Shown: piece after piece, positions 1,595 to 61,150 of the stretch
Layout of the letters: the number at the start of each line of letters is the position of its first letter
Numbering within the stretch: the stretch's first letter is position 1
Assembly (NCBI GenBank): GCA_049322675.1
Contig: JBMORM010000010.1
Coordinates: 19,028-83,027, forward strand
Source of the DNA: Patescibacteria group bacterium
GTDB taxonomy: Bacteria; Patescibacteriota; JAHJAL01
DNA: 64,000 bases
Reading direction: 5' to 3'
Notes under the pieces: generated by a model
What the model was told of the DNA's origin: nothing
The model's input: the letters and a program-made list of their open reading frames with translations, nothing else
The model's database searches: none
Translations under genes and position numbers: made by a program

Positions 1595-3340
1595 ATGGAA
1601 AATAAAATCTGTCGGCAGTGCGGAATAAGTTTTATTGTTTCTGACGATGATTTGAAATTTTTGGAAAAGATATCGCCGGAATTTACCCCTCCTTCGCTTG
1701 AAGCTTCGGCGAGGCAGGGAAAAAAGTATCTGATCCCCTCCCCGACTTTGTGTCCGACTTGCCGATTGCAAAGAAGATTGGCGCATCGCAACGAGAGAAA
1801 GCTTTACAAAAGAAAGTGTGATGCGACCGGAAAAGATATTGTTTCTTTGTATTCTCCCAACAAGCCCTACAAGGTTTTTGATCAAGAATATTGGTGGAGC
1901 GATAAATGGGAGGCGATGGATTTTGGTCAAGATTATGATTTTTCCCGGCCGTTCTTTGAGCAATTTAAAGAACTTTATGATCGGGTGCCAAAGTTGAATA
2001 TCATCAATTCCGGGAGCGAGAACAGCGAATATACCAACCTGGCGGCCTACAATAAAAATTGTTACATGATTGTGGAGAGTAGCAACAATGAGAATTGTTA
2101 CTATGATTACTGGATTCAATTGTCAAAAAATTTGGTTGATTCTTGTTATGCTCACCAATCGGAGATTGGATATTGGAACTCGGATATTCGGGAGGGGTAT
2201 AATTTGCAATTTTGCCGCAAGGCGATAAATTGCCGAGATAGTTTTTTTCTGGAAGATAGTGTCGGGTGTAAAAATTGTTTTGCCGGCACAAATTTACACA
2301 ATAAGGAATATTACTTATTTAATCAGCCGGCGAATAAAGAGCAATTTGAGGAAACGTTGCAAATTTGGCAACAAGGAAATCAGGAGGAGAGGAGAGCTTT
2401 GTATGAAAAAATAAATAAGTTTTTTAGTGAGCAACCATTAAAGGCCGGTAGGATAGTTAATTCGGAAAATTGTGTTGGCGACTATATTTCCGACAGCAAA
2501 GATTGCTATATGTGTTTTGACGCGAGTGAAAGCGAAAGCTGCCGTTATTGTTCTGACGTAATGCGTAATGTAAAAGAGGCGATGGACACTTCGACGGCTG
2601 GTTTAGATTGTGAATTGATGTATGAATGTTTGAATACGGCGATCAATGTTTACAAAATGGCTTTTACCAATGTCTGCTGGACCAATTTGAAAAATGTTTT
2701 ATACAGTATGTATTGCTACAAATCCGAAGATATTTTTGGTTGTGTCGGCTTGCGCGACCATAAACAATACTGCATTTTGAATAAGCAATATACGAAAGAA
2801 GAATATGAAAGACTAATACCAAATATCATCGGACATATGATCTCAACTGGTGAATGGGGAGAGTTTTTTCCGATGAATGTCTCGGCTTACGGTTATAACG
2901 AAACTGTAGCACAAGATCATTTTGTTTTAACAAAAGATGAGGCCGAAAAATTGGGGGCAAACTGGGAGGATGGAGATTTTACACCGAAATATGATGGTGA
3001 AGTTTATAAGCCAAAGCCAATCGACTTATTCCAATTGAAAAATAATCCCCAAGCACAAACAGAAATTGATCTCTGTTTGAAAGGAATAATAAAATGCGAG
3101 AAATCAGGGCGACCTTTCAAGATTTTGCCACAAGAACTGGCTTTTTATATTGAAAATAATATTGAATTACCCAAAATTCATCCGGATGAGAGACATTTGG
3201 AGAGAATCAATAATAGGCATCATTACAAGTTGGAGAAAATTAATTGTGATAATTGCGGGCAAGAAATATCTACTTCTTTACCAAAGAATATTGGTAGAAA
3301 AATATATTGTGAGGAATGTTGGCAGAAATCTTTTTTGTAG
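1595..3340 (+). CDS. Cys-rich protein with N- and C-terminal zinc-ribbon-like CxxC pairs and internal NC/SxxC repeats (paralog A)
   Basis: 581 aa. The N-terminus has CRQCG...CPTCRLQRRLAHRNERKLYKRKC and the C-terminus CEKSG...CDNCG...YCEECW. The centre carries about 20-aa repeats rich in N-C and S-x-x-C. It is a clear paralog of 6329..8107 (same N-terminal CxxC..RNER..YKRKC..YSP and C-terminal ELAFY..RH..YCEEC blocks). Confidence 0.75.
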   Translation: MENKICRQCGISFIVSDDDLKFLEKISPEFTPPSLEASARQGKKYLIPSPTLCPTCRLQRRLAHRNERKLYKRKCDATGKDIVSLYSPNKPYKVFDQEYWWSDKWEAMDFGQDYDFSRPFFEQFKELYDRVPKLNIINSGSENSEYTNLAAYNKNCYMIVESSNNENCYYDYWIQLSKNLVDSCYAHQSEIGYWNSDIREGYNLQFCRKAINCRDSFFLEDSVGCKNCFAGTNLHNKEYYLFNQPANKEQFEETLQIWQQGNQEERRALYEKINKFFSEQPLKAGRIVNSENCVGDYISDSKDCYMCFDASESESCRYCSDVMRNVKEAMDTSTAGLDCELMYECLNTAINVYKMAFTNVCWTNLKNVLYSMYCYKSEDIFGCVGLRDHKQYCILNKQYTKEEYERLIPNIIGHMISTGEWGEFFPMNVSAYGYNETVAQDHFVLTKDEAEKLGANWEDGDFTPKYDGEVYKPKPIDLFQLKNNPQAQTEIDLCLKGIIKCEKSGRPFKILPQELAFYIENNIELPKIHPDERHLERINNRHHYKLEKINCDNCGQEISTSLPKNIGRKIYCEECWQKSFL

Positions 3341-3482
3341 GGGGCGAGTCGCGACTCGCCCGTACGATAATTAATTCGTAGGGGCGAGGTCCCCTCGCTC
3401 GACCGATGTCATAATCGAAGGATCGGACCCATGTGTCCGCCAAATGTCCTAACCGTAGGGGCGGGTTTTAAACCCGCCCGTC
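3338..3482. repeat. Cluster of GC-rich REP-like palindromes (GTAGGGGCGAG...CTCGCCC type), 3-4 units
   Basis: The units are tagggggcgagtcgcgactcgcccgtacga, gtaggggcgaggtcccctcgctcg, ggacccatgtgtccgcc and gtaggggcgggttttaaacccgcccg. Each is a perfect or near-perfect hairpin. The same ordered cluster recurs at 6097..6276, and the gene's stop codon TAG lies inside the first unit. Confidence 0.85.
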
Positions 3483-3763: not shown

Positions 3764-6079
3764 ATGAGACAAAAATGGGTGGGAGGGGTTTTGGCTTTTT
3801 TTGTATTTAACCTGGCAATGATCAATTTGCCGGTAGCGACGGCGGCAGCGGAATATGATTATCAGTGGGTGAGCCAGTCGGCTTATCCGACGATAAATTT
3901 GGGTGAGACAAAAGAGCTGTCTTTAAAAATTAAAAACACCGGTAGTCAAACCTGGAAACGTGATGGTAATAACGCCGCACATCTCGGGACCAGTCGGCCG
4001 AAAGATCGCAATAGCGGCTTTAGTGCAAGTAATTGGATTGCCGCCAATCGATCGGCAAAATTGATTGAGGAATCGGTGGCGCCGGGAGCAGAAGGAAATT
4101 TTGTTTTTTCGATTGCGCCAGATGATTCAATGGTGGTTGCGGGCGGTTGTTATGACGAATATTTTACACCGGTAATCGAAAACATAACTTGGATGAAAGA
4201 TGAGGGAATTTTCTGGAAGATTTGCGTAACAAATTCGGCGACTACTTCTGATAATGCTTATACCAATTTCAAGGACAAAGCGGATTTTGATAAATATTTT
4301 GAACAGGCGGAAAAAATATATGGCGACGAAACTCCTTTATACAAAGGCGTCTATGATTACATGGGAGACGCGGCCCCAGGGCAACCGATTGTTGGCAATG
4401 GGGAAAGTGACTCTCGTTATTCTAGCACCAATGTCCAATACAGCGGGATCGATGAGCCGGATATTGTAAAAGTAAATGAAAAAAATATTTTTTATTCTCA
4501 CTGGCCGTATGTAGTTTATGACGAAAAACCAATCTCGAGTGAGACGGATTTTGTTCCACCGATGCAAACGGGAGAAACCAAGATTATCAATGCTCAACCG
4601 GTGAATGATTTAAAAATTAGCGGCAAAATTGGACAACAAGGTGATATGCTGCTGGATGGCAATAATTTGATAGTATTGGCTTATGATGCGGTATATGGTT
4701 ATGATGTGTCGGATGCGACCAATCCGATTGAAAAGTGGTCTTATCATTTCAAAGAAAATACCGGGTATTCACAAGCTCGATTGTACAATCACCAACTATA
4801 TCTTTTAACTACCACTTGGACATACTACGACCGACTTTGCCCAATGCCGATTGCCGAAGGTGTCGAGGTCCGATGTGCCGATATTTATCATCCGACTTCA
4901 ATAATTGACAGTGATCAGTTTTACAATTTTCAACAAATAAATCCGGAAAATGGGAATATTGAAAAAACCGTTTCCTTTGTCGGGGCGTCCTACAATTCGG
5001 CCTTTATGATGTCAGAAAACAATGCTTATTTGGCTAATACGATTGAGCCGGATTATTCGATTTTGTTGGTTGATTTTCTCGATCAAAATCCGACCGTGAT
5101 GCCGGAAGATTTGAAAAATAGAATCAGAACGATCAATGGTTACGAGATAAGCCGCTATTCCAAACAGACGGAGATTTCCAACGCAATTATGGATTATCAA
5201 TATTCTTTGGATGAAACTACTCGTGCCAATTGGGAAAATAATATCAATCAAGCTTTGAAAAGTTACGTGCAGGCCAATGCGACCAAGATCAGCCGCACAC
5301 AGATTGTTAAAATTGGTTTAAATAGTTTTGGTTTGGATGCCGTCGGACAGGTGCCGGGAAGTTTGTTGAGTCAATTTTCACTGGACGAAAGCAATGATTA
5401 TTTGCGAGTGGCTTCCACAGTTGATGTCAATTGGTGGTTTATGTGGTCTAGCAATGTAAGCAATGATACTTTTAGCCAGGTAACGGTGTTGGACAATAGT
5501 ATGCAAACGATCGGACAAATCAGTGATCTGGGTCAAGGCGAGAGAATTTATTCGGTGCGATTTGTCGGAGACAATGCCTATGTGGTAACTTTCAAGGAAA
5601 TTGATCCGTTTTATATTATTGATTTGACCAATCCGACTCAACCGGTCAAGGCAGGAGAATTGAAAATCCCCGGGTACTCATCTTATCTCCATCCGATCTC
5701 GGAAAATTTAATACTGGGATTGGGAATGGAAGATTCCAAATTGAAATTGGCTTTATACGATGTAAGTAACGCCAATAATCCGATTGAAAAATCAAAATAC
5801 TATCTGGAAAATACCTGGTCGGAAGCACTTTATGACCATCACGCTTTTTTGAATGACCTCAAACATCAGATTTTCTTCCTGCCCGGCAGCAATGAAGGTT
5901 TGATCATATCCTATGCCAACGGTCAGCTGGAATTGAAAAAGAAAGTGTCCGATTTTTATGCTTCCAGAGCGGTTTATATCAATGATTACCTCTATTTGTT
6001 GGGACAAAATGAAATCAAGGTGCTGAACGAAAATAACTGGTTGCAGGTAAATGAACTGGACATTGCCGCGTTTGGTTGA
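3764..6079 (+). CDS. Secreted protein: signal peptide, Ig-like (NBR1-FW-type) N-terminal domain, C-terminal beta-propeller domain (PF09826-like)
   Basis: 771 aa. The signal peptide is MRQKWVGGVLAFFVFNLAMINLPVATAAA. The N-terminal domain (..LSLKIKNTGSQTWKRDG..RPKDRNSGFSASNWIAANR..) is homologous to the N-terminus of 13981..16140. The C-terminus carries the YSVRFVGDNAYVVTFKEIDPFYIIDLTNPTQP...LLG motif, a hallmark of the secreted bacterial/archaeal beta-propeller domain family. Confidence 0.8.
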   Translation: MRQKWVGGVLAFFVFNLAMINLPVATAAAEYDYQWVSQSAYPTINLGETKELSLKIKNTGSQTWKRDGNNAAHLGTSRPKDRNSGFSASNWIAANRSAKLIEESVAPGAEGNFVFSIAPDDSMVVAGGCYDEYFTPVIENITWMKDEGIFWKICVTNSATTSDNAYTNFKDKADFDKYFEQAEKIYGDETPLYKGVYDYMGDAAPGQPIVGNGESDSRYSSTNVQYSGIDEPDIVKVNEKNIFYSHWPYVVYDEKPISSETDFVPPMQTGETKIINAQPVNDLKISGKIGQQGDMLLDGNNLIVLAYDAVYGYDVSDATNPIEKWSYHFKENTGYSQARLYNHQLYLLTTTWTYYDRLCPMPIAEGVEVRCADIYHPTSIIDSDQFYNFQQINPENGNIEKTVSFVGASYNSAFMMSENNAYLANTIEPDYSILLVDFLDQNPTVMPEDLKNRIRTINGYEISRYSKQTEISNAIMDYQYSLDETTRANWENNINQALKSYVQANATKISRTQIVKIGLNSFGLDAVGQVPGSLLSQFSLDESNDYLRVASTVDVNWWFMWSSNVSNDTFSQVTVLDNSMQTIGQISDLGQGERIYSVRFVGDNAYVVTFKEIDPFYIIDLTNPTQPVKAGELKIPGYSSYLHPISENLILGLGMEDSKLKLALYDVSNANNPIEKSKYYLENTWSEALYDHHAFLNDLKHQIFFLPGSNEGLIISYANGQLELKKKVSDFYASRAVYINDYLYLLGQNEIKVLNENNWLQVNELDIAAFG

Positions 6080-6096
6080 TAAAAAATAATATCATC

Positions 6097-6276
6097 GTAC
6101 GGGCGGGTAAACCCCGCCCGTACGATATCAATTGTAGGGGCGAGGTCCCCTCGCCCGACGTCAATCCGTAAGGGCGGACCCATGTGTCCGCCCTTTTTTG
6201 TTGGAGATTACAAAATGATACAATTGATTTATTGATTATTAATGAATTGTAGGGGCAGGTCATGACCTGCCCATCA
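6097..6276. repeat. REP-like palindrome cluster (duplicate of the 3338..3482 cluster)
   Basis: The units are cgtacgggcgggtaaaccccgcccgtacga, gtaggggcgaggtcccctcgcccg, gggcggacccatgtgtccgccc and gtaggggcaggtcatgacctgccc. The unit order matches the 3338 cluster, and it is followed by the same aaaaattaaataat tract. Confidence 0.85.
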
Positions 6277-20003: not shown

Positions 20004-23000
20004 ATGGAAAATGATTTCAATAAAAAACTAGAAGAGGCGATCAAAACAGGCGTGTTTGATCAAATCGAGTGTAATAATGACGAAGAAAGATCGTTACTTA
20101 AAGCAGGAAAGAAAATTTATCAGGCTAAATTTAAAGCAATTCCTGCTGATAACGGTTTTAAAAATGTTCTTTTTGACAGATTAAAACAGGCGCGGCAGGG
20201 AGAAGGAAAAACAATGGAAAAAGAAATGGTCAAAGGGCAACAATTTGATTGGTGGGCGTTTTTGACTCAAAGAAAATGGGCGGTGGGAATTGCCTCGTTT
20301 TTGCTGGTGGCAATAGTCGCTTCATTGTTGTATTGGCTGCCAGGGACCAAGCAGACGACCGGTGGGATTTTGATCCCACGGGCCCAGGCGGATGAAATGT
20401 TTACTTTCAAACCGACAAAAGCGGACAGTATCGGGATTGACGAAGAAAGTGATTTTTCTCTGGTAAGTCAGATTGATTTAAAATTGGCAGATGTTGAAAA
20501 GTATTTGGAAGTAGATCCGGCATTTAAATATAGTGTTAAGGAAATTTCCGCACGGGAATTTTTGATTGATAGCCAGGAGAAACTAAATCCAAAACAGATT
20601 TACAAATTTAAATTGAAAACAACGACTCAGGACGCGAACGTTTTGGAAAGCCGCGATTTTGATTGGGCATATCAGATCAAGGACGAATTTAGAATTACCG
20701 GAACCATACCTGGCGATAAAAGTGATGCTGTGCCACTGGATAGCGGAATTGAAATAAATTTTAATCAGGAGAATTTTGTTAATTTCGATCAGTCAATCGA
20801 AATCAGTCCTGCCATACCGGGTCGATTGGAAAAGCATTATAAAACTTTGGTATTTGTGCCGACGGAAAACTTGCAGGCTTCAACTTTGTACCAAGTAAAA
20901 GTCAGTAAGTCGATTGTTTTGGATGGAAGTGATAAAAAATTGGCCGAGGATTATACTTTTGCTTTTGAAACTTCCACCGATACTACAAAAGATGGATATT
21001 TTGAAATAGAGGATGAGGTTGGGCAATATGGTCCGGAGGAAGTGCCGGGGGTCAAGATGTGGGTCAATATTTTTGACTCAGACGAGAATAAAGATGTGGC
21101 GACCAAGTTATTTCGTTTGGAATCGCAGGATCAGTTTTTGGATTTGTTGAACAAACGAAACGAAATTCCGTTGTGGGCAAGTCAAGCGCGTAATCGCGCG
21201 CAGGTGGATGTGACCGGTTTGAATAAAGTTGGTGAATATAATTTGCCGATTCATCGTTTGGATTACAATCAGTATATTTTGTTTCCGGATAAATTGCCTA
21301 TCGGATATTATTTGGCGCAATTTACAGTCAAAGGACAAACTAGACAATCTTTTATTCAAATCAGTAATTTGACCGCATATACTTCGATCAGTAAAACAAA
21401 TAGTTTGGTGAGAATATATAGTTTGGCGGGACAGAAACCAGCAGCGGGTACGGTTTTAACTATGTATCAAGGCGAACTGGAAGAACAAACAAATGATGAG
21501 GGAATTGCCTTTTTTGCGACACCGGAAGTTTTGTTGACGATATCGGAAAAAAGTCGATTTTTGCTGGCGACCGGAGCGGACGGAGAATTGGTAATTCCGA
21601 TAAAGAACTACGAGCGTGGCCAGATTTTTGATACGGATACGTCGGAGAATGATAATTTTTGGCGATATGTTTTTCTCGATCGCAGCGTTTATCACCCGAC
21701 AGACACAATCAAATTTTGGGGAATGATAAAACCTCGTGATGCAAATACCGCTAAGGTCAGTAAAGTATCGGTCGGAGTAGAGATGTTTTATCCGCGAACA
21801 GATGTTTTCGGAACAGTAGAAGTTGATTTGAATGAAGATGGTATATTTAGCGGAGAATATCAATTGAAGAATATGCCGACCAGTTCTTTGAATTTTACAA
21901 TCAGGGGTGAAAATGATGAATTGTTGCTCACTTCGTATTTGAATATCGAAGATTATATCAAGCCGGCTTATAGGATTGAATTGTTGCCGGATAAAAAAGC
22001 AGTAGTGCAAGGAGAGACGGTAAATGTTCGGGTAAAGGCGAAATACTTTGACGGAACACCGGTCGCCAATTTGGATCTGGATTATCAAGGTTTGACCATC
22101 AAAACCGATCAAGTGGGAGAAACAAATTTTACAGTTGAGACCACTGATAAAGCCAATTGTTCCGATTATAACTGCTGGTCAAGTTCGAGCACGATTGAAG
22201 TAAAACCATTGCGGGCGGAAGAAGGAGAGATTGTCGGAGTGACATCTGTGGACGTTTTTCCGGCCAAAGAAATGGTGAAGATATCGGGTAAGTATGATGA
22301 GGAAAATGGACAGATTGCTTGGAAAATAAATGTTAATGAAGTCGGTTTTGAGCGATTGAATCTGGGTGAAAAAAATTATTACGATGATTATATCGGACAG
22401 AAATTACCTAATCATGAAATACAAGTTCAGATTTATGAAAACTGGTGGGAGAAGACCGAAACAGGAGAAGAGGAATATGATTTTATCAACAAAGTGACCA
22501 GAAAAAAATATAGTTATTCGAGAGAAGAAAAATTGATCAAAGAATTTGGGGAAAAAACAGACGAAAATGGAGAGTATGATTATGTATTAAATAATTTGAC
22601 GGCCGGTAAAGATTACACTATGCGGGCAAGCATAGTGGATCCGGACGGAAGACAATATTTCAATCGAGCCACGATTTATTTTGATGGAGGGAACTATCAA
22701 AGCATTTTTATTGATTCCTATGGTTTTAGAAAAGACGAAAATGAAGATGTCAAAACATTTAAATTGGGCGAGAAAGTCAATTTGACCATGGTAAAAAATA
22801 GTTTTGACTCTATACCGGACAAAACGGGAAGTTATATTTTTTATCAGGCACAAAACGGAATCACTGAATATCAGGTTGGTGATAGTTCAAAATATGAATT
22901 TACTTTTGAAGAAAAGCATATTCCCAATGTCAATGTGATCGGAGTTTATTTTGACGGGGCACGTTTTTATCACACCAAAAAAGTATGGAATGATATGACT

Positions 23001-25571
23001 ATATTCTTCGATTATGAGCAGCGCCGATTGCAGCTTGAGGTAAAAGCAGAAAAGGAACAATACGAGCCGGGTGATGAGGCGACGGTAAAAATTGAGGTAA
23101 AGGACGAAAATGGCCAGCCAACTCAAGCACATGGCAATATCTCTTTGGTGGATGAGGCGTATTTTGATTTGTTCAATCGGGAACCTGTGGATACCCTGGC
23201 TTTGTTGTACTCAAAAGTGGAAGACGGTATATTCTTTAGCGAGACTTCCAATAAACCGTTGACGAAAATGATTTTCCAAGGTGGATGTTTTACCGCCGGG
23301 ACAAAAATATTGATGGCCGATGGAACCACCAAGGCGATCGAAGATATTCGTTTGGGCGATTTGGTATCAACTTTTGTTAATGAACATTCCAATATCAAGA
23401 TGACGGACAAGGTAACAAAAATTTTCAACGAAATTTCCGGTGGATATTTGGTGATCAACGATCGGCTCAATGTCACCTCCCACCATCGACTTTTGGTTAA
23501 TAATAAATGGATGACAGCGGGCGAGATAAAAGTAGGCGATTATTTGCGGGATCAAGACGGTGAGTTGGTCAAAGTGGAAAAAATCGAAACAAAAAGTGGC
23601 CGATTCACGGTGTACAACTTTACCACGGAGGCAACTCATACATATATCGCTGACGGAATATATGTCCACAACAGCAAAGGTGGAGGGAGGGAAAGTTTTG
23701 AAGATACCGCCTTTTTCTCTTCATGGAAAACTGATCGAAACGGGAAAGCCACCGTCAAGTTTACTTTGCCGGATAATATCACCAGTTGGAGAATTACCAC
23801 TCAGGGAATTTCGTCCACATTGAGAGCCGGTAGTGGCACCAACAAATTGGTAGTGACTCAACCAATATTTTTGGACATGTCTTTGAATACAAGTTATGTC
23901 AATACAGACAAGCCGATTGTTCCTATCCGAGTCTATGGAGAAAATATGACGGCGGACGACGAGGTGGAAATTACTGTCGAATCAAAAACTTTGAAAACAA
24001 AAGAAAAGTTGCACGGCAAAGCATTTACGACAATCGAATGGTTGATGCCGGAATTGAAGGTGGGGGAACAGGAAATTATCGTGACAGCAAAAGCCAAAGG
24101 ACTGACCGATAGTGTCAAGCGTTCATTTGTGGTAAAAGATACACGATTGACCAAACAGATGAGTCAGAGCGTGAAATTGACAGCGGATTTGAAACCGAAA
24201 CAACAGTCAGAAAATGGCCGGGTGGAGTGGAAGTTTTTTAACGGCGATATCGGATGGGCTTACGAAAATTTGCTCAATGCCAGTTGGCAGGATGGAGAGA
24301 GAATTGATCAAAAGCTGGCGCCGGTAGTGGCAGAAAAATATTTGCAAGAAAGTTTTGGTCTCGGATCGGGCGCGCAAAAAGTTGACGAAATAGCCAAATA
24401 TCAACGAGAAGATGGCGGATGGTCATTGCTTCCCTACTCTGACAGCGATTTGAAATTGTCGGCACTGACGGCAGGAATCGTCCCGGCTGAATGGCAAAAT
24501 GTTACCGAAGCCAAAAAATATTTTAACAATATTTTGGATAATAAAAAAAGTAATACCACTGAGATAGCCATGGCTTTGTATGGTTTAACAAATCTGGATG
24601 AACCGGTTTTGAATCAAATCAATCAGATTTTGAAATGGCCGGAACTGAAGCCAATTGATCAAATCTATTTGGGATTGGCGGCGGAAAAATCGGGCGCCAA
24701 AGAATTGGGAAGAAATATATTGCATGATGTTTTGCAAAAAAATGCGAAAACTAGCGGTGACAATATGTTTATTCCACAATCAGACCAATCGGCTCAAGAC
24801 GAGATCACCAGTCTGGCGGCAATCTTGGCCAATGCCACCGAAATGGACGAAAAGGAAAGCCTGATGAATTATCTGCGAGAGGGTCGGGATGGTGACAATT
24901 TGTATCTTTGGGAAAAAATGATCATCACCAAGAATATTTTGGATAGAAACAATGACCTAGATAGCGAATTTACTTATACTGTGGCAGGAAAAAACAAAAA
25001 AATAAGCCTAAAAAATAACGAGGAATTTGCTCTGAGTTTGACCAATGAGGAAAATAGCAGTTTGGCCTTTTCTCAAATCAAAGGGAAAATAACAGCAGTA
25101 GCGACATGGGAAGAGAAAGCAATAGATACAACAACCGACAAAAATCTGAAAATCAGCCGGGAATACTGGGTCAACGACCAGAAAGTAGATGTCGTCAGAG
25201 AAAATGATTTGGTTGAAGTGCGCATATTTCCTCAAATCAGTGAAGAAGCTCCATCTGACGCTTATCAGATTACCGATCTTTTACCTAGTGGATTAAAACC
25301 AATTACCAGAACATATACGCCATATTGGGGGAACAATGGAGGAAATTGGAAATGCAATGTGTACTTCCCGTCGGATATTAGCGGACAAAAGTTGAGTTTT
25401 ATCGTTTATAAAAACTTAATGCACTCCGGCTGTGAGGGTGGATATATCAGTTATTTTGCCCGGGTAAGCAACAAGGGCGATTTTACCCGCGAATCGGTAA
25501 CGATCAATCAAGTTGACGAGCCAACGTTCCGTTTGACCAGCCAGGAAGACAAGAGATTGGTGATTGAATAA
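20004..25571 (+). CDS. Membrane-anchored alpha-2-macroglobulin (A2M)-family protein with an inserted Hint/intein-like domain; short N-terminal cytoplasmic segment + single TM (anti-sigma-like placement)
   Basis: 1855 aa. The TM helix is WAVGIASFLLVAIVASLLYWL, around aa 92-112. Big/SbsA-Ig-like N-terminal domains are present. The bacterial A2M macroglobulin-domain motif is RESFEDTAFFSSWKTDRNGKATVKFTLPDNITSWRITTQG (compare YfhM/ECAM ..F.ETAFF.P...TD..G...V.F.LPDNLT.WR). The thioester-domain region is FGLGSGAQKV...KYQREDGGWSLLPY, with the CxEQ site degenerated to GSGAQ. A C-terminal receptor-binding-like domain follows. Confidence 0.8.
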   Translation: MENDFNKKLEEAIKTGVFDQIECNNDEERSLLKAGKKIYQAKFKAIPADNGFKNVLFDRLKQARQGEGKTMEKEMVKGQQFDWWAFLTQRKWAVGIASFLLVAIVASLLYWLPGTKQTTGGILIPRAQADEMFTFKPTKADSIGIDEESDFSLVSQIDLKLADVEKYLEVDPAFKYSVKEISAREFLIDSQEKLNPKQIYKFKLKTTTQDANVLESRDFDWAYQIKDEFRITGTIPGDKSDAVPLDSGIEINFNQENFVNFDQSIEISPAIPGRLEKHYKTLVFVPTENLQASTLYQVKVSKSIVLDGSDKKLAEDYTFAFETSTDTTKDGYFEIEDEVGQYGPEEVPGVKMWVNIFDSDENKDVATKLFRLESQDQFLDLLNKRNEIPLWASQARNRAQVDVTGLNKVGEYNLPIHRLDYNQYILFPDKLPIGYYLAQFTVKGQTRQSFIQISNLTAYTSISKTNSLVRIYSLAGQKPAAGTVLTMYQGELEEQTNDEGIAFFATPEVLLTISEKSRFLLATGADGELVIPIKNYERGQIFDTDTSENDNFWRYVFLDRSVYHPTDTIKFWGMIKPRDANTAKVSKVSVGVEMFYPRTDVFGTVEVDLNEDGIFSGEYQLKNMPTSSLNFTIRGENDELLLTSYLNIEDYIKPAYRIELLPDKKAVVQGETVNVRVKAKYFDGTPVANLDLDYQGLTIKTDQVGETNFTVETTDKANCSDYNCWSSSSTIEVKPLRAEEGEIVGVTSVDVFPAKEMVKISGKYDEENGQIAWKINVNEVGFERLNLGEKNYYDDYIGQKLPNHEIQVQIYENWWEKTETGEEEYDFINKVTRKKYSYSREEKLIKEFGEKTDENGEYDYVLNNLTAGKDYTMRASIVDPDGRQYFNRATIYFDGGNYQSIFIDSYGFRKDENEDVKTFKLGEKVNLTMVKNSFDSIPDKTGSYIFYQAQNGITEYQVGDSSKYEFTFEEKHIPNVNVIGVYFDGARFYHTKKVWNDMTIFFDYEQRRLQLEVKAEKEQYEPGDEATVKIEVKDENGQPTQAHGNISLVDEAYFDLFNREPVDTLALLYSKVEDGIFFSETSNKPLTKMIFQGGCFTAGTKILMADGTTKAIEDIRLGDLVSTFVNEHSNIKMTDKVTKIFNEISGGYLVINDRLNVTSHHRLLVNNKWMTAGEIKVGDYLRDQDGELVKVEKIETKSGRFTVYNFTTEATHTYIADGIYVHNSKGGGRESFEDTAFFSSWKTDRNGKATVKFTLPDNITSWRITTQGISSTLRAGSGTNKLVVTQPIFLDMSLNTSYVNTDKPIVPIRVYGENMTADDEVEITVESKTLKTKEKLHGKAFTTIEWLMPELKVGEQEIIVTAKAKGLTDSVKRSFVVKDTRLTKQMSQSVKLTADLKPKQQSENGRVEWKFFNGDIGWAYENLLNASWQDGERIDQKLAPVVAEKYLQESFGLGSGAQKVDEIAKYQREDGGWSLLPYSDSDLKLSALTAGIVPAEWQNVTEAKKYFNNILDNKKSNTTEIAMALYGLTNLDEPVLNQINQILKWPELKPIDQIYLGLAAEKSGAKELGRNILHDVLQKNAKTSGDNMFIPQSDQSAQDEITSLAAILANATEMDEKESLMNYLREGRDGDNLYLWEKMIITKNILDRNNDLDSEFTYTVAGKNKKISLKNNEEFALSLTNEENSSLAFSQIKGKITAVATWEEKAIDTTTDKNLKISREYWVNDQKVDVVRENDLVEVRIFPQISEEAPSDAYQITDLLPSGLKPITRTYTPYWGNNGGNWKCNVYFPSDISGQKLSFIVYKNLMHSGCEGGYISYFARVSNKGDFTRESVTINQVDEPTFRLTSQEDKRLVIE
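23286..23672 (+). other. Hint-domain insertion (mini-intein or bacterial intein-like domain, 129 aa, no endonuclease) within the A2M-like ORF
   Basis: The segment starts with Cys (CFTAGTKILMADGTTKAIEDIRLGDLV...), ends with ...THTYIADGIYVHN, and is followed by Ser (+1). The flanks IFQGG | SKGGGRESFEDTAFF are continuous host sequence leading into the conserved A2M motif. Confidence 0.75.
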
Positions 25572-25595: not shown

Positions 25596-25624
25596 GTAGA
25601 GGCGGTTCATGAACCGCCTCTACA
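25596..25624. repeat. REP-like palindrome (single unit)
   Basis: gtagaggcggttcatgaaccgcctctaca is a perfect hairpin, nearly identical to the copy at 52845. Confidence 0.85.
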
Positions 25625-52844: not shown

Positions 52845-52872
52845 TGTAGGGGCGGTTCATGAACCGCCCCTA
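52845..52872. repeat. REP-like palindrome (single unit)
   Basis: gtaggggcggttcatgaaccgcccctac is a perfect hairpin, downstream of groEL. Confidence 0.85.
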
Positions 52873-52999
52873 CGATGATATTTTATTTGCAGACATGGGA
52901 CCAAAAATTGTATTTAATTAAAAACACAATCCCTCAAATCATGTCTGCGTAGGCCAGTGTATGCTTATCGGGATATTTAAGCAATACTTTTTCAAGAAA

Positions 53000-54682
<1,683 letters not shown>

Positions 54683-54955: not shown

Positions 54956-55243
54956 TTAATCTTTGACAATGGCGATGACATCGGATTCGGCGAGAATCAT
55001 GTATTCTTTGCCGTCGATTTTGAATTCGTCGGGAGCGTAGCGGCGGAAAATGATAATATCACCGACTTCAATAGTCATGGGGATGATTTTGCCGTTGTCA
55101 TCCCGCTTGCCCTTACCTACAGCCAATACTTTGGCTTTTTGCGGTTTTTCTTTGTCCATGGTTTCCGGGACGACAAAACCTGATTTACTGGTTTCGACAA
55201 TCGCTTCGATAAGCAGGCGATCGCCTAGAGGGAGTAGTTTCAT
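54956..55243 (-). CDS. groES: Co-chaperonin GroES (Cpn10)
   Basis: 95 aa. MKLLPLGDRLLIEAIVETSKSGFVVPETMDKEKPQKAKVLAVGKG...IIFRRYAPDEFKIDGKEYMILAESDVIAIV. Confidence 0.95.
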   Translation of the reverse strand: MKLLPLGDRLLIEAIVETSKSGFVVPETMDKEKPQKAKVLAVGKGKRDDNGKIIPMTIEVGDIIIFRRYAPDEFKIDGKEYMILAESDVIAIVKD

Positions 55244-55703: not shown

Positions 55704-55777
55704 GGGCGGTTAGCTCAGCTGGTTAGAGCGCCACATTGACATTGTGGAGGTCAGAGGTTCGATTCCTCTATCGCCCA
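55704..55777 (+). tRNA. tRNA-Val (anticodon GAC)
   Basis: Cloverleaf: acceptor GGGCGGT/ATCGCCC (7 bp, one G-T), D-arm GCTC-AGCTGGTTA-GAGC, anticodon arm CCACA-TTGACAT-TGTGG (U33, G34 A35 C36, A37), variable loop AGGTC, T-arm AGAGG-TTCGATT-CCTCT, discriminator A. No CCA is encoded. Confidence 0.85.
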
Positions 55778-56540: not shown

Positions 56541-56570
56541 GTAGGGGCGGGTTTCAAACCCGCCCCTACA
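56541..56570. repeat. REP-like palindrome
   Basis: gtaggggcgggtttcaaacccgcccctaca. Confidence 0.85.
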
Positions 56571-56687
56571 TATATTTTTTTTAAAGATCAAAATAATACC
56601 GATGAATTCATGTTTTTATCGAATCCATCAGTGATTTCATCATATCAGAAAATATTGGAATGTGCCAAAATTTGGGGGTTAATTTTG

Positions 56688-56714
56688 TTGGGGCGGGGTG
56701 ACCCCGCCCGTACA
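56688..56714. repeat. REP-like palindrome
   Basis: ggggcggggtgaccccgcccgtaca. Confidence 0.85.
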
Positions 56715-56774
56715 TTAATTATTTATTAATTTTTATTTCATTTGAAAATAATTTCGGTTTGTTAATTTGGGAAT

Positions 56775-57377
56775 ATGCGAATAAATGCCAGAAAAACAAT
56801 CCGTTTGCCAAATTATGATTATTCATCACCCGATGATTATTTTGTGACGATTTGTACGAAGGATCGGGAATGTTTGTTGGGAAATGTGATTGATGATGAA
56901 ATGGTGTTGAATAAATACGGGAAAATTATTGAACAATATTGGTTTGATTTACCCAATCATTATCCCAATATCATATTGGATGAATTTGTGGTGATGCCCA
57001 ATCATGTGCATATGATCATATCAATCGTAGGGGCGGGGTCTCCCCGCCCTTCCACGGTTTTGCCCCGCCCCTCCATGAATCAAAACGCAATCCGAAACAT
57101 TAAACCGATTCACCAAATAAACGACAATTGTGTGAGGGGCGAGGAAACCTCGCCCCTACGAAAAATACGAAAAATAACGTTGGGCAATATTGTTGCATAT
57201 TTTAAATATCAAACAACCAAACAAATAAACAAAATTTTGTGCAATATTGGTCATAAAATCTGGCAACGGAATTATTTTGAACGGATCATAAGAAATGAAC
57301 GCGAATTGAACAAAACCCGGGAATATATTCAAAACAATCCATACAATTGGCCAAACGATCGAAATAATAATTTATAA
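56775..57377 (+). CDS. IS200/IS605-family Y1 (HuH) transposase of the REP-associated tyrosine transposase (RAYT) type, carrying an in-frame REP insertion
   Basis: 200 aa. The HuH motif is MPNHVHMII. The catalytic-Tyr helix is WQRNYFERIIRNERELNKTREYIQNNPYNW (compare the IS200/RAYT consensus WQR.YY-H.IR.E.-L....YI..NP). Between the two, about 45 aa (GAGSPRPSTVLPRPSMNQNAIRNIKPIHQINDNCVRGEETSPLRKIRK) are encoded by REP DNA (57027..57160). Confidence 0.8.
   Translation: MRINARKTIRLPNYDYSSPDDYFVTICTKDRECLLGNVIDDEMVLNKYGKIIEQYWFDLPNHYPNIILDEFVVMPNHVHMIISIVGAGSPRPSTVLPRPSMNQNAIRNIKPIHQINDNCVRGEETSPLRKIRKITLGNIVAYFKYQTTKQINKILCNIGHKIWQRNYFERIIRNERELNKTREYIQNNPYNWPNDRNNNL
57027..57160. repeat. REP units inserted in-frame inside the RAYT coding sequence
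   Basis: gtaggggcggggtctccccgccc ... ccccgcccctcc ... gaggggcgaggaaacctcgcccctacg. No stop codon in the gene's frame. Confidence 0.8.
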
Positions 57378-57483
57378 CGTACGGGCGGGGTCTCCCCGCC
57401 CCTCCATGGTTATTTTTCCTTTCCACGTTATTTTAACCTCCTTGGGCAATCGCAATGAGGGGCGGGGAAACCCCGCCCCTACG
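57378..57483. repeat. Two REP units immediately 3' of the RAYT gene
   Basis: gtacgggcggggtctccccgcccctcc and gaggggcggggaaaccccgcccctacgg. Confidence 0.85.
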
Positions 57484-57736
57484 GTATGGTATGTGATTTC
57501 AGGGTGGGGTTTTGGGGCGTTTTTTCATTGACAGATTGCGTTTTCGATGGTATGTTCGCGTTAACCATTAAATAAAATTTTTAAAGAAATTTTGAGAGGT
57601 GGTGAACATTAAAAATTAGCAACTCCGACGACGTTTTTGGGAATTTTGACGTCTCGGAGAAAAAATTAGGAAAGTTTCCTATTCCTGCATGCCGACAGGA
57701 AGAAAAAATAACATGGCATATATTTTTTGAGAGGAT

Positions 57737-59407
57737 GTGAGAAAAATGACGAGAGTCATTTTTTTGTTTTTTGTATTAACATACTTAGGTTTTTCTTTGA
57801 TAGGTTGCGGCGGAGGATCTGGAACGGGGGCGGATGTGAATGTAAACACTCCAGTTCCCTTGGCTACCGCTACGCCGTTAAACCAATTAACTACGACAAT
57901 AAGCGGAATTTTTTTAATGAGGGATAAGACTACTCCACAAAATGACCCAAATATGGTTGTACTTATCCAAAGTTCTTCTATAAATTCAAGCGCCATTCAA
58001 ACAAATTATAATGTTCTTGTTCACATAAATAATCTTGGAAAGTTTACATCTGCAGGAGCTCCTTATGGAACATTATTTTTTTATGGATGGCCAAGCTCTG
58101 TTGCTTATAACAATGATGCACAAAAGAATCAGTTTGTTTGTTCGTCAAAGTTTGAAGCTACAGGACCAGAATTAGCTGTTGTACTTGTTGAGGGTGAATT
58201 TATTCAGGGGAATCCAACCCCTGTCTCCACGCCAACAGCAAATCCAATTATGACCCCGACTCCCACAGGCACGACAACGCCTCCAACTACTACCCCAACA
58301 ACAGTTCCTACAACTTTGCCCACTCCGAATGGGGCACAAGTTGTTGTTTCTGGGTTGCCAATCGGGGCAGTTATTGAGGTGTTGCCTAAGATTGATATTT
58401 CTGGTTACAACTGGGTTGAGTTTTCTCCAGCTGACAAGGTCAGCGGAGACGATCATAGATATCGATTGAATTTTACTGCCCCATCTCCTTTGATTTCTGG
58501 AACAGCTGGTAATAGTGGGGTGGTAAATATTAATGGATTAACTGTTGGAAACTATTACAATGTCAGAGTCATGGATAGCTCTGGCAAAATTATTGGTAAT
58601 TTTTATTTTCAGACGGTAGCGGGAAATAACAGTTTTACATATCCGTCAGGAAATAAAAGAACTGTTCGTTTTTATATTAACCAAAAGACAAATACCACGA
58701 CCGAAAGATTAGTGGATTTGTCTAAGTGCACAGTATATCTTCAAATGAACAATGGGTCAGCGTGGTATTCCGAATGCTACTGGCAGGATTACTCGGACAC
58801 AAAGGGATACTACGTTGATTTTCAGGGGATGGGCACTGGAGCCGGAACGGTGAACTTTTGGCTGGTTGACAAATTTGGAAACAATATTGGGTCCAATACA
58901 GTTTATGTCAATATTGGTTCCAGTACTTCCAAAGTAACCATTCCGATGACTGACTTCCAACCCATGGGTGACCAATTTATGGAAGACCCCAATGGGGTTG
59001 ACCATTTTGGCAATGGGTCAGCTGTCAGCGGAGGCTGGAACTGGCCAGTAACTGCAGTTTCCAGCGATAAGTATTTTTGGCAGAAGACAAGTGGATACAC
59101 TTTTTCAACTTCAAGGTTGGTAGCAGTGAAAATTAAGTGTAGTCCATTGTCTCGAAACCAGACAGAAACCCTGATCTTCCGGTCTGACATCACAGGCGCC
59201 GCTGGCGTCTGGTACTATCGCGGAGTTAGGGAAAAGGATTTTTATGCGGGAAATGATTATGTAATTATAATCTTTCCAGCAGAAGCTGGCACAAATTATA
59301 AGATAAGCCAGTTGGCGACTTCAGGATATCTGGGAGGCGTCACAATCAACTGGGTGAGTATCTTCCAGATCATGACCGTCGTTGCCGGAAATCCCGAATA
59401 TCAATAA
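57737..59407 (+). CDS. Lipoprotein with Thr/Pro-rich linker (hypothetical, 556 aa)
   Basis: Signal plus lipobox MRKMTRVIFLFFVLTYLGFSLIGC|GGGSG. Linker PTPTGTTTPPTTTPTTVPTTLPTP. No recognisable catalytic motif. Confidence 0.7.
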   Translation: MRKMTRVIFLFFVLTYLGFSLIGCGGGSGTGADVNVNTPVPLATATPLNQLTTTISGIFLMRDKTTPQNDPNMVVLIQSSSINSSAIQTNYNVLVHINNLGKFTSAGAPYGTLFFYGWPSSVAYNNDAQKNQFVCSSKFEATGPELAVVLVEGEFIQGNPTPVSTPTANPIMTPTPTGTTTPPTTTPTTVPTTLPTPNGAQVVVSGLPIGAVIEVLPKIDISGYNWVEFSPADKVSGDDHRYRLNFTAPSPLISGTAGNSGVVNINGLTVGNYYNVRVMDSSGKIIGNFYFQTVAGNNSFTYPSGNKRTVRFYINQKTNTTTERLVDLSKCTVYLQMNNGSAWYSECYWQDYSDTKGYYVDFQGMGTGAGTVNFWLVDKFGNNIGSNTVYVNIGSSTSKVTIPMTDFQPMGDQFMEDPNGVDHFGNGSAVSGGWNWPVTAVSSDKYFWQKTSGYTFSTSRLVAVKIKCSPLSRNQTETLIFRSDITGAAGVWYYRGVREKDFYAGNDYVIIIFPAEAGTNYKISQLATSGYLGGVTINWVSIFQIMTVVAGNPEYQ

Positions 59408-59536: not shown

Positions 59537-59687
59537 TCGTAGGGGCGAGGTCTCCTCGCCCCTACATGTTTATTTTTCTTTTTTCAGGTCAAACCCGATG
59601 AAGGGCGGGGAAACCCCGCCCCTACGATTTTGGGCGGACATATACAATCGGGCAGACACGTGGGTCCGCCCCTACGGGGACAAACGC
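59537..59687. repeat. REP-like palindrome cluster (same composite order as 3338 and 6097 clusters)
   Basis: cgtaggggcgaggtctcctcgcccctaca; gggcggggaaaccccgcccctacga; gggcggacatatacaatcgggcagacacgtgggtccgcccctacgggg. Confidence 0.85.
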
Positions 59688-59737
59688 GGGGGGGGGTGGT
59701 GGTGGGGGTTTTGGGGATTTGGGGTATAATTGGGGAA

Positions 59738-59914: not shown

Positions 59915-61150
59915 ATGTTTTCCGAAATTATTAAACAACAGGGGTGGAGTAAGTACCGCGAGAAGCAGATCAATCGCGGGGTTTTTGTGGAACTTGTAAA
60001 TAATTGGCAGGAGATTACTAGTTTACCGAGGGAGATTCGGGATTATTTGGACGATAATGTGCCGTTTTGTTCTTTGAAACTGGTGCGGGAACAGGTAAGT
60101 AAAAATAACGATACGGTGAAAGCATTATTTGAATTGGCGGATGGTAATATGATCGAATCGGTGCTGATGATGCATGCGGACCGCAATACGGTGTGCGTGT
60201 CCAGTCAGGTCGGGTGTCCGGTGGGTTGCACGTTTTGCGCCACCGGGGCGATGGGATTCAAGAGAAATTTAACCAGTCGGGAGATTGTGGATCAGGTGTT
60301 GTGGTGGGCGCGGAAGGCGAGAAATTTCCAATTTCCAAATCCCAGTTTCAAAAAAATTTCCAATGACCAAACAGATACCGTAGGGGCGACCCTTGCGGTC
60401 GCCCGGAATGGGGATATCGTCGGGGCGGATCAATGCGTTCGTCCGGATTTATCGTCCGTAGGGGCGGGGTCTCCCCGCCCATCCATGGATATTTTTCGGG
60501 CAAATATTTCCCGGGTAAATGGCAATACCGCCAAGGGCGGGGAGACCCCGCCCCAACGAGTTAATAATATCGTATTCATGGGGATGGGGGAACCGATGAT
60601 GAATTTGGAGAATGTGGCTGATGCGATAACTGTTTTGACGGACAAAGAGAAATTTGGGATTAGTAAGAGGAAAATTACCATTTCGACCAGCGGATATATT
60701 GCCAATTTGGATAAATTGTTGAAACAATTTCCGCATATTGGACTGGCAATCAGTTTGCATGCGCCGACGCAAGAGTTGCGGGAAAAAATCATGCCGACAG
60801 CGGCAAAAAATAATCCGTTGGATAAATTGATTGATCTGGTAGCAGATTATTCTCGCAAGACGAAACGGAGGGTGAGTTTTGAATATATACTGATTGAAAA
60901 GGTCAATGACGACTTGATTCAGGCGCAACAATTGGCAAAATTGTTGTCAAATAAAGGTTTTCTTTTTCATGTCAATTTGATAGCATTTAATGCGGACAAA
61001 AAAAATGGCGCGCAAAAATACTCTCGACCAAACAGCCAGCGGGTGAATTTTTTTCGAGATGAACTGATCAAACTGAAAGTGCCGGTATCGATCAGATCCA
61101 GCATGGGTGAGGATATCGCCGCCGCCTGCGGACAATTGGCCAATAACTGA
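59915..61150 (+). CDS. rlmN: 23S rRNA (adenine2503-C2)/tRNA methyltransferase RlmN (radical SAM) with a ~240-nt in-frame repeat insertion
   Basis: 411 aa. The radical-SAM cluster is CVSSQVGCPVGCTFCATGAMGFKRNLTSREIVDQV. Downstream are NIVFMGMGEPMMNLENV, ITISTSGY, LAISLHAPTQELREKIMP and FEYILIEKVNDD. Between WWARKA and NNIVFMGMGEP lie about 80 extra aa (RNFQFPNPSFKKISNDQTDTVGATLAVARNGDIVGADQCVRPDLSSVGAGSPRPSMDIFRANISRVNGNTAKGGETPPQRV) encoded by family-2 heptads plus three REP units. Confidence 0.85.
   Translation: MFSEIIKQQGWSKYREKQINRGVFVELVNNWQEITSLPREIRDYLDDNVPFCSLKLVREQVSKNNDTVKALFELADGNMIESVLMMHADRNTVCVSSQVGCPVGCTFCATGAMGFKRNLTSREIVDQVLWWARKARNFQFPNPSFKKISNDQTDTVGATLAVARNGDIVGADQCVRPDLSSVGAGSPRPSMDIFRANISRVNGNTAKGGETPPQRVNNIVFMGMGEPMMNLENVADAITVLTDKEKFGISKRKITISTSGYIANLDKLLKQFPHIGLAISLHAPTQELREKIMPTAAKNNPLDKLIDLVADYSRKTKRRVSFEYILIEKVNDDLIQAQQLAKLLSNKGFLFHVNLIAFNADKKNGAQKYSRPNSQRVNFFRDELIKLKVPVSIRSSMGEDIAAACGQLANN
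60320..60560. repeat. Composite repeat insertion (family-2 heptads + 3 REP palindromes) lying in-frame inside rlmN
   Basis: gagaaatttccaatttccaaatcccagtttcaaaaaaatttccaatgaccaaac... gtaggggcgacccttgcggtcgcccgg ... gtaggggcggggtctccccgcccatcc ... gggcggggagaccccgcccc. Length is about 241 nt (a multiple of 3 within error), with no stop in the gene frame. Confidence 0.8.

Follow-up and report, generated by a model that had tools for sequence, protein, structure and literature searches.

An in-frame REP doublet inside a REP-associated tyrosine transposase gene of a Patescibacteria-labelled genome

The 64-kb stretch of DNA analyzed here (contig JBMORM010000010.1 of assembly GCA_049322675.1; the entire stretch is referred to as the window) belongs to a metagenome-assembled genome (MAG) labelled Patescibacteria group bacterium. 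It harbors a single copy of a gene for a putative REP-associated tyrosine transposase (RAYT, also termed TnpA_REP), which is accompanied by repetitive extragenic palindromes (REPs). The positions of the gene and of the REPs are compiled in Table 1. As proposed in the first-pass annotation of this DNA, REPs are located on both sides of the gene, and the downstream copies, which form an inverted doublet, begin 2 nt past the RAYT stop codon. A further inverted doublet is located inside the gene and keeps its reading frame. The REPs are GC-rich palindromes with a GTAG head in DNA with a G+C content of only 39.4%, a contrast that had likewise been noted correctly. The database protein P0001, encoded on a contig of 120 kb, is identical to the window RAYT and is labelled as a transposase from a Patescibacteria group bacterium MAG.

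Table 1. Location of the transposase gene and of the REPs in the window
Feature	Position	Strand	Remarks
RAYT / TnpA_REP gene	56775..57377	+	200 aa; HUH aa 77-79, W163 Q164, predicted catalytic Y184, N188
Internal REP doublet of RAYT	57027..57159	+	133 nt, in frame; RAYT residues 85-129 (45 codons)
Upstream double-foot REP GTAGGGGCGGGTTTCAAACCCGCCCCTAC	56541..56569	.	206 nt before RAYT start; 13-bp hairpin, -15.7 kcal/mol, z = -8.0
Second upstream REP	56687..56713	.	Degenerate head and foot (GTTG...GTAC); 62 nt before RAYT start; kept in ortholog L001
Downstream inverted REP doublet (REPIN-like)	57379..57482	.	One long hairpin, -29.8 kcal/mol, z = -6.2; kept in L001
REP cluster	59539..59675	.	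3' of gene 57737..59407; inverted doublet 59539-59625 plus GGGCAGACACGTGGGTCCGCCCCTAC unit
Four REP units inside rlmN (59915..61150)	60380..60557	+	In frame; part of a ~75-aa insert, residues 138-214 (60326-60556)
Composite REP cluster	3337..3482	.	3' end of ORF 1595..3340
Composite REP cluster	6097..6274	.	3' of gene 3764..6079; unit order as in 3337-3482
Single double-foot REP	25596..25623	.	25 nt 3' of gene 20004..25571
Single double-foot REP	52846..52873	.	3' of groEL (53000..54664, minus strand)

The RAYT sequence comprises the HUH motif PNHVHMII (residues 75–82), a WQ pair (163–164) and the motif REYIQNNP (182–189). Its match to the Pfam family PF01797 (Y1_Tnp, IS200-like) scores 30.7 bits with a gathering cutoff of 23 and falls into two stretches that are split by the internal insert. 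The top NCBIfam family is NF047646 (REP_Tyr_transpos) with 53.2 bits, again in two stretches, and the equivalog transpos_IS200 remains below its cutoff of 55 bits (19.2 bits, and 30.2 bits without the insert). An AlphaFold (AF2) model based on 30 homologs has a confident core of 103 residues with a predicted local distance difference test score (pLDDT) of at least 90. In a Foldseek comparison with the PDB, all 30 significant matches of this model are Y1 transposases (E values of 5e-6 to 4e-4); they include ISDra2, IS608, IS200, a Sulfolobus TnpA and the Escherichia coli TnpA_REP structure 4ER8, which reaches the highest query TM-score (0.51). The corresponding sequence search of the PDB retrieved only a spurious weak match (4n6k, E = 0.13), and the relationship with 4ER8 and the IS608 family is visible by fold search only. 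Judged by its family matches and predicted fold, the ORF encodes a REP-associated Y1 HUH transposase, which sustains the IS200/RAYT assignment of the first-pass annotation. The residues H77, H79, Q164, Y184 and N188 are invariant among the 30 homologs. The asparagine at position +4 from Y184 has its counterpart in the Y115/N119 pair of E. coli TnpA_REP (PMC6006769), thereby indicating that the catalytic tyrosine is the one in REYIQNNP; the initial annotation recognized the NHVHMII and NNP motifs, but the tyrosine of WQRNY, which it had singled out, is not the catalytic one.

The internal doublet consists of two REPs in inverted orientation, the left arm being partly duplicated, and it corresponds to the peptide VGAGSPRPSTVLPRPSMNQ...CVRGEETSPLR. 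The left internal REP is read as VGAGSPRP and is followed by the partial duplicate, and the right internal REP is read as RGEETSPL(R). In the AlphaFold model the insert region (residues 85–133) lies between the HUH strand (77–84) and the helix formed by residues 136–155. The pLDDT is low over residues 88–130, with means of 44 to 52 for blocks of ten residues and values below 50 for residues 88–97, 112–123 and 126–130, so that the REP segment is predicted to be a disordered loop. The in-silico removal of residues 85–129 results in a single collinear REP_Tyr_transpos match and raises its score from 53 to 71 bits. Together with the low pLDDT, this collinear match suggests that the insert resides in a loop following the HUH strand that is able to tolerate an insertion, a possibility raised when the locus was first described. 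The observation of about 45 in-frame REP codons between the HUH and tyrosine motifs is thus accurate, but their designation as unusual is not, because in-frame internal REPs are a published signature of TnpA_REP subclass 2.4 (PMC6006769).

The REPs of the window were located by a hairpin scan in combination with the head motif, for which one mismatch was allowed. The motif GTAGGGGCGRK is found 30 times where 1.45 occurrences are expected, and none of the 100 shuffles that served as a control reaches this number; the exact pattern GGGGCGGGG-N(2-8)-CCCCGCCCC is present at one site only. The units are distributed over nine loci, i.e., the regions upstream of, inside and downstream of RAYT and the further sites listed in Table 1. 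The earlier count of more than ten other sites holds for REP units, 15 of which lie outside the RAYT unit, but not for separate loci, of which these units occupy seven. Double-foot units of the type GTAG...CTAC are found at 56541, 52846, 25596 and 59539. The copies at 25596 and 52846, correctly described as near-identical, differ solely in one compensatory stem pair (A-T versus G-C) that preserves the hairpin. The recurring composite order REP, REP, GGACCCATGTGTCCGCC, REP was also borne out: it is present in the clusters 3337–3482 and 6097–6274 and, in part and on the opposite strand, at 59539–59675. All extragenic copies in the window lie 3' of genes in co-directional spacers. When folded as single-stranded DNA, the REP units have z-scores of -5 to -8, and the doublets 57379–57482 and 60458–60557 each form one long hairpin that resembles a REPIN, the name given to inverted REP doublets. 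Scans with Rfam models and for tRNAs detected only a tRNA-Val (55704–55777), and none of the REPs is covered by a known RNA family. Two details concern individual copies. In the cluster 3337–3482, the first REP extends into the 3' end of ORF 1595..3340, and its GTAG head (3337–3340) provides the TAG stop codon of this ORF. The GGGCGGACCCATGTGTCCGCCC unit at 6172–6198 is directly followed by TTTTTTG and resembles an intrinsic terminator for gene 3764..6079, and the copy of this unit at 3424–3441 has no such T-run.

The presence of the same REP family inside rlmN, which the first-pass annotation had mentioned, is confirmed by four in-frame units. The RlmN protein of the window (P0121, labelled Patescibacteria group bacterium) matches TIGR00048 with 324 bits in two stretches and, after deletion of the insert in silico, with 337 bits in a single stretch. 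The insert is located opposite residues 165–169 of PDB 6fz6, in a surface loop between the helix downstream of the radical-SAM cysteine motif and the MGMGEP strand. In this frame the REPs are read as VGATLAVAR, VGADQCVRP and VGAGSPRPS...GGETPPQR. Two close relatives with 86–90% identity over the aligned residues contain one doublet (P0122, 367 aa) and one different REP (P0123, 352 aa), i.e., the same loop accommodates four, two or one REP units in three closely related proteins. More distant RlmNs have no REPs at this loop, and some of them have REP-like inserts in other loops; further inserts of this kind in other loops are also seen in some RlmNs of Patescibacteria. The insertion polymorphism in rlmN represents the best, albeit indirect, evidence for a recent mobility of the REPs.

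A comparison with close relatives provides insights into the evolution of the RAYT gene itself. The ortholog L001 is 84% identical to the window RAYT and exhibits the same internal doublet as well as the same flanking REPs. The synteny of RAYT and the downstream lipoprotein-like gene is kept in L001, although this downstream gene is only 60% identical. The relative L004 carries a different REP type, GGGCGGACCCATGTGTCTGCCC, at the internal site of RAYT with the same start and end positions. The dN/dS ratio of the RAYT core between the window and L001 is 0.20, which is indicative of purifying selection and characterizes the gene, as far as sequence comparison can tell, as functional and not decayed. 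The first description had stated that the system appears active; this is supported only indirectly, by the REP polymorphism among close relatives in rlmN and at the internal site of RAYT. The RAYT alleles also display a mosaic structure. At positions 56880–56960 the window differs from L001 and the more distant L004, which match each other, while the three sequences are almost the same over the first ~100 nt. This mosaic patch suggests recombination between RAYT alleles.

Our survey of the linker between the two motif regions covered the 120 best RAYT homologs, 108 of which have a parseable linker. Most of these linkers encode recognizable REP peptides, as judged by inspection of the list and not by counting, and their length ranges from 14 to 113 aa. 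Peptides such as VGAGSPRP, CRGEVTSPLRK, GGETPPLRK, GRGNRAPT and ...PRPY correspond to the same DNA palindrome read in every open frame, which speaks for REP DNA in the linker rather than for a conserved protein motif. A second survey, with one genome per species, yielded 584 confirmed relatives, and the following figures refer to the best 80 loci, which belong to more than 20 phyla. A GC-rich palindrome is located inside the gene, just past the HUH codons, in 55 of the 80 loci, and 53 of these 55 loci are free of stop codons across the whole match. The variable central 18 nt of the internal palindromes, compared with at most one mismatch, recur in the flanks of their own locus in 34 of 77 cases (44%), compared with 84 of 6083 (1.4%) in the flanks of other loci. 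The internal copies are hence cognate to the REPs of their own genome. The density of palindromes amounts to 1.8 per kb within the genes, 2.3 per kb in the 300 nt next to their ends and ~0.65 per kb at a distance of 1–10 kb. Some REP sequences are shared over large phylogenetic distances. The identical inner sequence GGCGAAAAATTTTTCGCC is present in RAYT genes of unrelated phyla (L026, L033, L048, L084), and the upstream REP of the window at 56541–56569 is identical to the internal REP of a RAYT from Dehalococcoidia (L071). These shared inner sequences suggest either that REP-RAYT pairs spread horizontally or that convergence was strong.

The classification of TnpA_REP proteins by Quentin, Siguier, Chandler and Fichant (2018, BMC Genomics 19:475; PMC6006769) allows us to place the window RAYT. 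The members of their subclass 2.4 have a median length of 194 aa and share the motifs NH[IFV]H, WQ and YIxNNP. The domain inserted between β3 and αC is highly variable, and long double-foot REPs of the type 5' GT[AG]G ... C[TC]AC 3' flank the gene and are also located in frame inside it, between the HUH and tyrosine motifs. The subclass corresponds to Bertels' RAYT Group 4 (PMC6006769), which is frequent in Cyanobacteria, Chlorobia and Caldilineae and has a scattered distribution over 17 classes (Bertels, Gallie and Rainey 2017, PMC5581495). All features of subclass 2.4 are present in the window (NHVH, WQ, YIQNNP, a length of 200 aa, the β3–αC insertion, double-foot REPs, REPs on both sides of the gene, and internal in-frame REPs), and the patchy distribution over many phyla is likewise shared. 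Judged by the published motifs and features, the window RAYT fits subclass 2.4 and Group 4. It differs from the published description in its internal element, which forms a complete inverted doublet (133 nt) and includes a partial duplication. Unlike the hosts named in those papers, the host of the window system is a Patescibacteria-labelled MAG, and our search of the accessible literature retrieved nothing that ties REPs or RAYTs to Patescibacteria.

The comparison with other systems reveals both common and distinct traits. E. coli TnpA_REP (YafM; PDB 4ER8; Ton-Hoang et al. 2012; Messing et al. 2012, PMC3479197) shares the Y1 HUH fold and the catalytic tyrosine with an asparagine at position +4, and GTAG-headed REP hairpins flank the gene in the window as well as in the E. 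coli REPtron with its bacterial interspersed mosaic elements (REP/BIME), where the gene is single-copy. However, the sequence identity between the two proteins is only ~15%. E. coli TnpA_REP represents subclass 2.2 without the β3–αC insertion and without a REP inside its gene; the stems of its REPs contain bulges, and a double foot is missing. The window doublets 57379–57482 and 60458–60557 resemble REPINs (Bertels and Rainey 2011, PMC3116915) in that each folds as one hairpin, but the definition of REPINs refers to RAYTs of Groups 2 and 3 in Pseudomonas and enterobacteria, whereas each window REP is a complete palindrome. In-frame units or dimers in housekeeping genes are known from the palindromic elements of Rickettsia (RPEs; Ogata et al. 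2000) and from GTAG/CGTC REPs, for which the accessible parts of Di Nocera et al. (2013, PMC3733652) catalogue intragenic GTAG copies in many such genes; there, intragenic repeats encode 20–80 extra residues in presumably tolerant loops, compared with ~75 aa in the window RlmN. The rlmN gene is absent from the examples quoted in those parts. RPE-1 is longer than the window REPs and has no known RAYT. The TnpA proteins of the IS200/IS605 family (IS608, ISDra2) share the fold and, by analogy, probably the catalytic chemistry and the recognition of subterminal hairpins in single-stranded DNA. Unlike these elements, the gene is present in the window in one copy and not as a multi-copy mobile insertion sequence with defined left and right ends, and its synteny is kept in L001.

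Taken together, the locus very probably represents a REPtron of subclass 2.4 / Group 4, composed of a RAYT gene and its cognate GTAG REPs, in which the internal insert is most likely a tolerated passenger that forms a disordered loop of the translated protein. In analogy to E. coli TnpA_REP as well as to IS608 and ISDra2, the RAYT protein would bind REP hairpins formed in single-stranded DNA and would recognize the GTAG tetranucleotide at the foot of the hairpin. Cleavage would proceed via the HUH-bound metal and Tyr184 with formation of a covalent phosphotyrosine link, and the DNA would subsequently be rejoined. In this way REPs and inverted doublets (REPINs) could spread or rearrange, and most of them would land just 3' of genes. 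REPs within coding DNA would survive only if the frame stays open, if their length keeps the frame, and if the encoded peptide comes to lie in a surface loop that tolerates it. GTAG can be read without a stop codon in two of its three frames and CTAC in all three. The RAYT loop between the HUH strand and helix αC and one loop of RlmN may represent such tolerant sites. A resident REP may then draw further REPs or be replaced, since REPs cluster beside REPs, and this attraction would explain why the internal site of RAYT persists across the family and tracks the REP type of each genome.

Several points weigh against this interpretation. The equivalog cutoff of NF047646 (80 bits) is missed by the RAYT, with 53.2 bits for the intact protein and 71.2 bits without residues 85–129, a shortfall that probably reflects its divergence from the proteins behind that model. 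Cleavage and joining by the RAYT would be an extrapolation from E. coli TnpA_REP, and the counts of REPs and RAYTs refer to 64 kb of the genome. The most conspicuous point is the slow divergence of the internal doublet. It is 95.5% identical between the window and L001, compared with 84.5% and 88% for the flanking codons, and its synonymous divergence is ~4 times lower than that of the surrounding codons (dS of 0.125 versus 0.49). Six differences in 134 nt of the doublet contrast with 66 in 465 (Fisher p = 0.0014), although a mosaic patch in the N-terminal half of RAYT inflates part of this contrast between coding sequence and doublet. Such a slow divergence would not be predicted for a purely passive passenger and needs hairpin constraint, gene conversion with other REPs, a recent re-insertion, or a function. 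It would be compatible with the alternative that the doublet is a selected cis element, be it an autoregulatory binding site, a hairpin in the mRNA that limits expression, or a protected master copy that ensures the joint inheritance of repeat and enzyme. The stems of the doublet are 100% conserved between the window and L001, and the prevalence of internal palindromes in more than 20 phyla, their open frames, their match to the REPs of their own genome and their density inside the gene, which exceeds that of the general flanks, all point in the same direction. However, the REP foot varies in its distance from the start of αC (...SPLRKPT, ...RAPT, ...PRPYKPT) and the number of units ranges from zero to more than four, which is indicative of repeated independent insertions. 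Moreover, 25 of the 80 loci, several of them cyanobacterial, have no strong internal palindrome, the unrelated rlmN gene behaves alike, and the low divergence stems from a single ortholog pair with a recombinant patch. We therefore regard a selected element, which is the main alternative, as unlikely.

The remaining explanations are far less probable. The extragenic REPs lie 3' of genes in co-directional spacers, and five of them have T-rich tails and score terminator-like; several copies could thus double as terminators, which also counts against the reading as a REPtron. It is nevertheless very improbable that the palindromes are ordinary intrinsic terminators or mRNA stabilizers with a distribution independent of the transposase and an incidental proximity to RAYT. 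Termination requires neither the shared GTAG head nor the CTAC foot, the palindromes form inverted doublets and composite clusters, and in-frame copies are located within two genes. Furthermore, they are enriched ~3-fold in and beside the RAYT genes of 80 genomes, where internal and flanking copies match each other, and the region from 52 to 62 kb contains 16 terminator-like sites, hardly more than the shuffle mean of 11.6. Terminator function is possible as a secondary role of the REPs. The split Pfam and NCBIfam matches and the insertion of REP DNA without coding origin would fit a pseudogene that was broken by REP insertion and whose open frame is coincidental, but all 45 inserted codons are open, the catalytic residues are intact, the core evolves under a dN/dS of 0.20 relative to an ortholog with the same insert, and 53 of the 55 REP-bearing homologs are also stop-free, so that a decayed gene can hardly be assumed. 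Equally remote is the scenario that VGAGSPRP and RGE(V/E)TSPLRK are ancestral motifs of the protein maintained by selection on the amino acids, from which the genomic REPs are derived or which they merely resemble. The consensus of the 30 homologs indeed shows VGAGSPRP ... TxPxR in the linker, but the same palindrome is read in all open frames (V-G-A-G..., C-R-G-E..., ...A-P-T, ...R-P-Y) and the inner stem varies together with the REPs of the respective genome, which largely refutes this scenario; the variable length of the linker (14–113 aa) and the predicted disorder of the segment also argue against it.

The surroundings of the REPtron comprise genes for chaperonins, a tRNA and a candidate surface protein. 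The groES (54956–55243) and groEL (53000–54664) genes are located on the minus strand just upstream of tRNA-Val (GAC; 55704–55777), which is followed by ~1 kb up to RAYT without a convincing ORF or Rfam match. The gene downstream of RAYT (57737–59407) encodes a protein with a signal and lipobox-like N-terminus and a Thr/Pro-rich linker, for which no Pfam or NCBIfam family was matched. It is only 60% identical to its syntenic counterpart in L001 (2119–3771), compared with 84% for RAYT, thereby suggesting a candidate fast-evolving surface protein. The sequence GGGGTTTTGGGG is found in exact form at 57506–57517 and 59705–59716, 23–30 nt past the right-hand REP, and is nearly conserved in L001. 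We dropped it as a component of the system, since its three hits in the window are equalled in 3 of 100 shuffles.

The RAYT gene with its in-frame internal REPs is a clean and well-preserved case of the arrangement that was published in 2018, and it leaves the existing knowledge of this arrangement unchanged. With it, a REP-RAYT system that appears to be live is placed in the compact, AT-rich genome of a Patescibacteria-labelled MAG. The differing REP content of close relatives at the same RlmN and RAYT loops provides direct comparative evidence for the turnover of REPs in coding DNA. Our analysis also sharpens a question that emerged from the 2018 paper, namely, why subclass 2.4 alone retains the substrate of the enzyme within the gene. 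Three results bear on this question: internal and flanking REPs match as cognates, the frames are open in 53 of 55 loci, and synonymous change is slower in the insert. If the internal doublet were functional, the enzyme or an mRNA hairpin could limit the expression of the gene itself, or repeat and enzyme would be inherited together. The window locus and its ortholog L001 represent suitable material to address why this RAYT family carries its substrate within its own gene.

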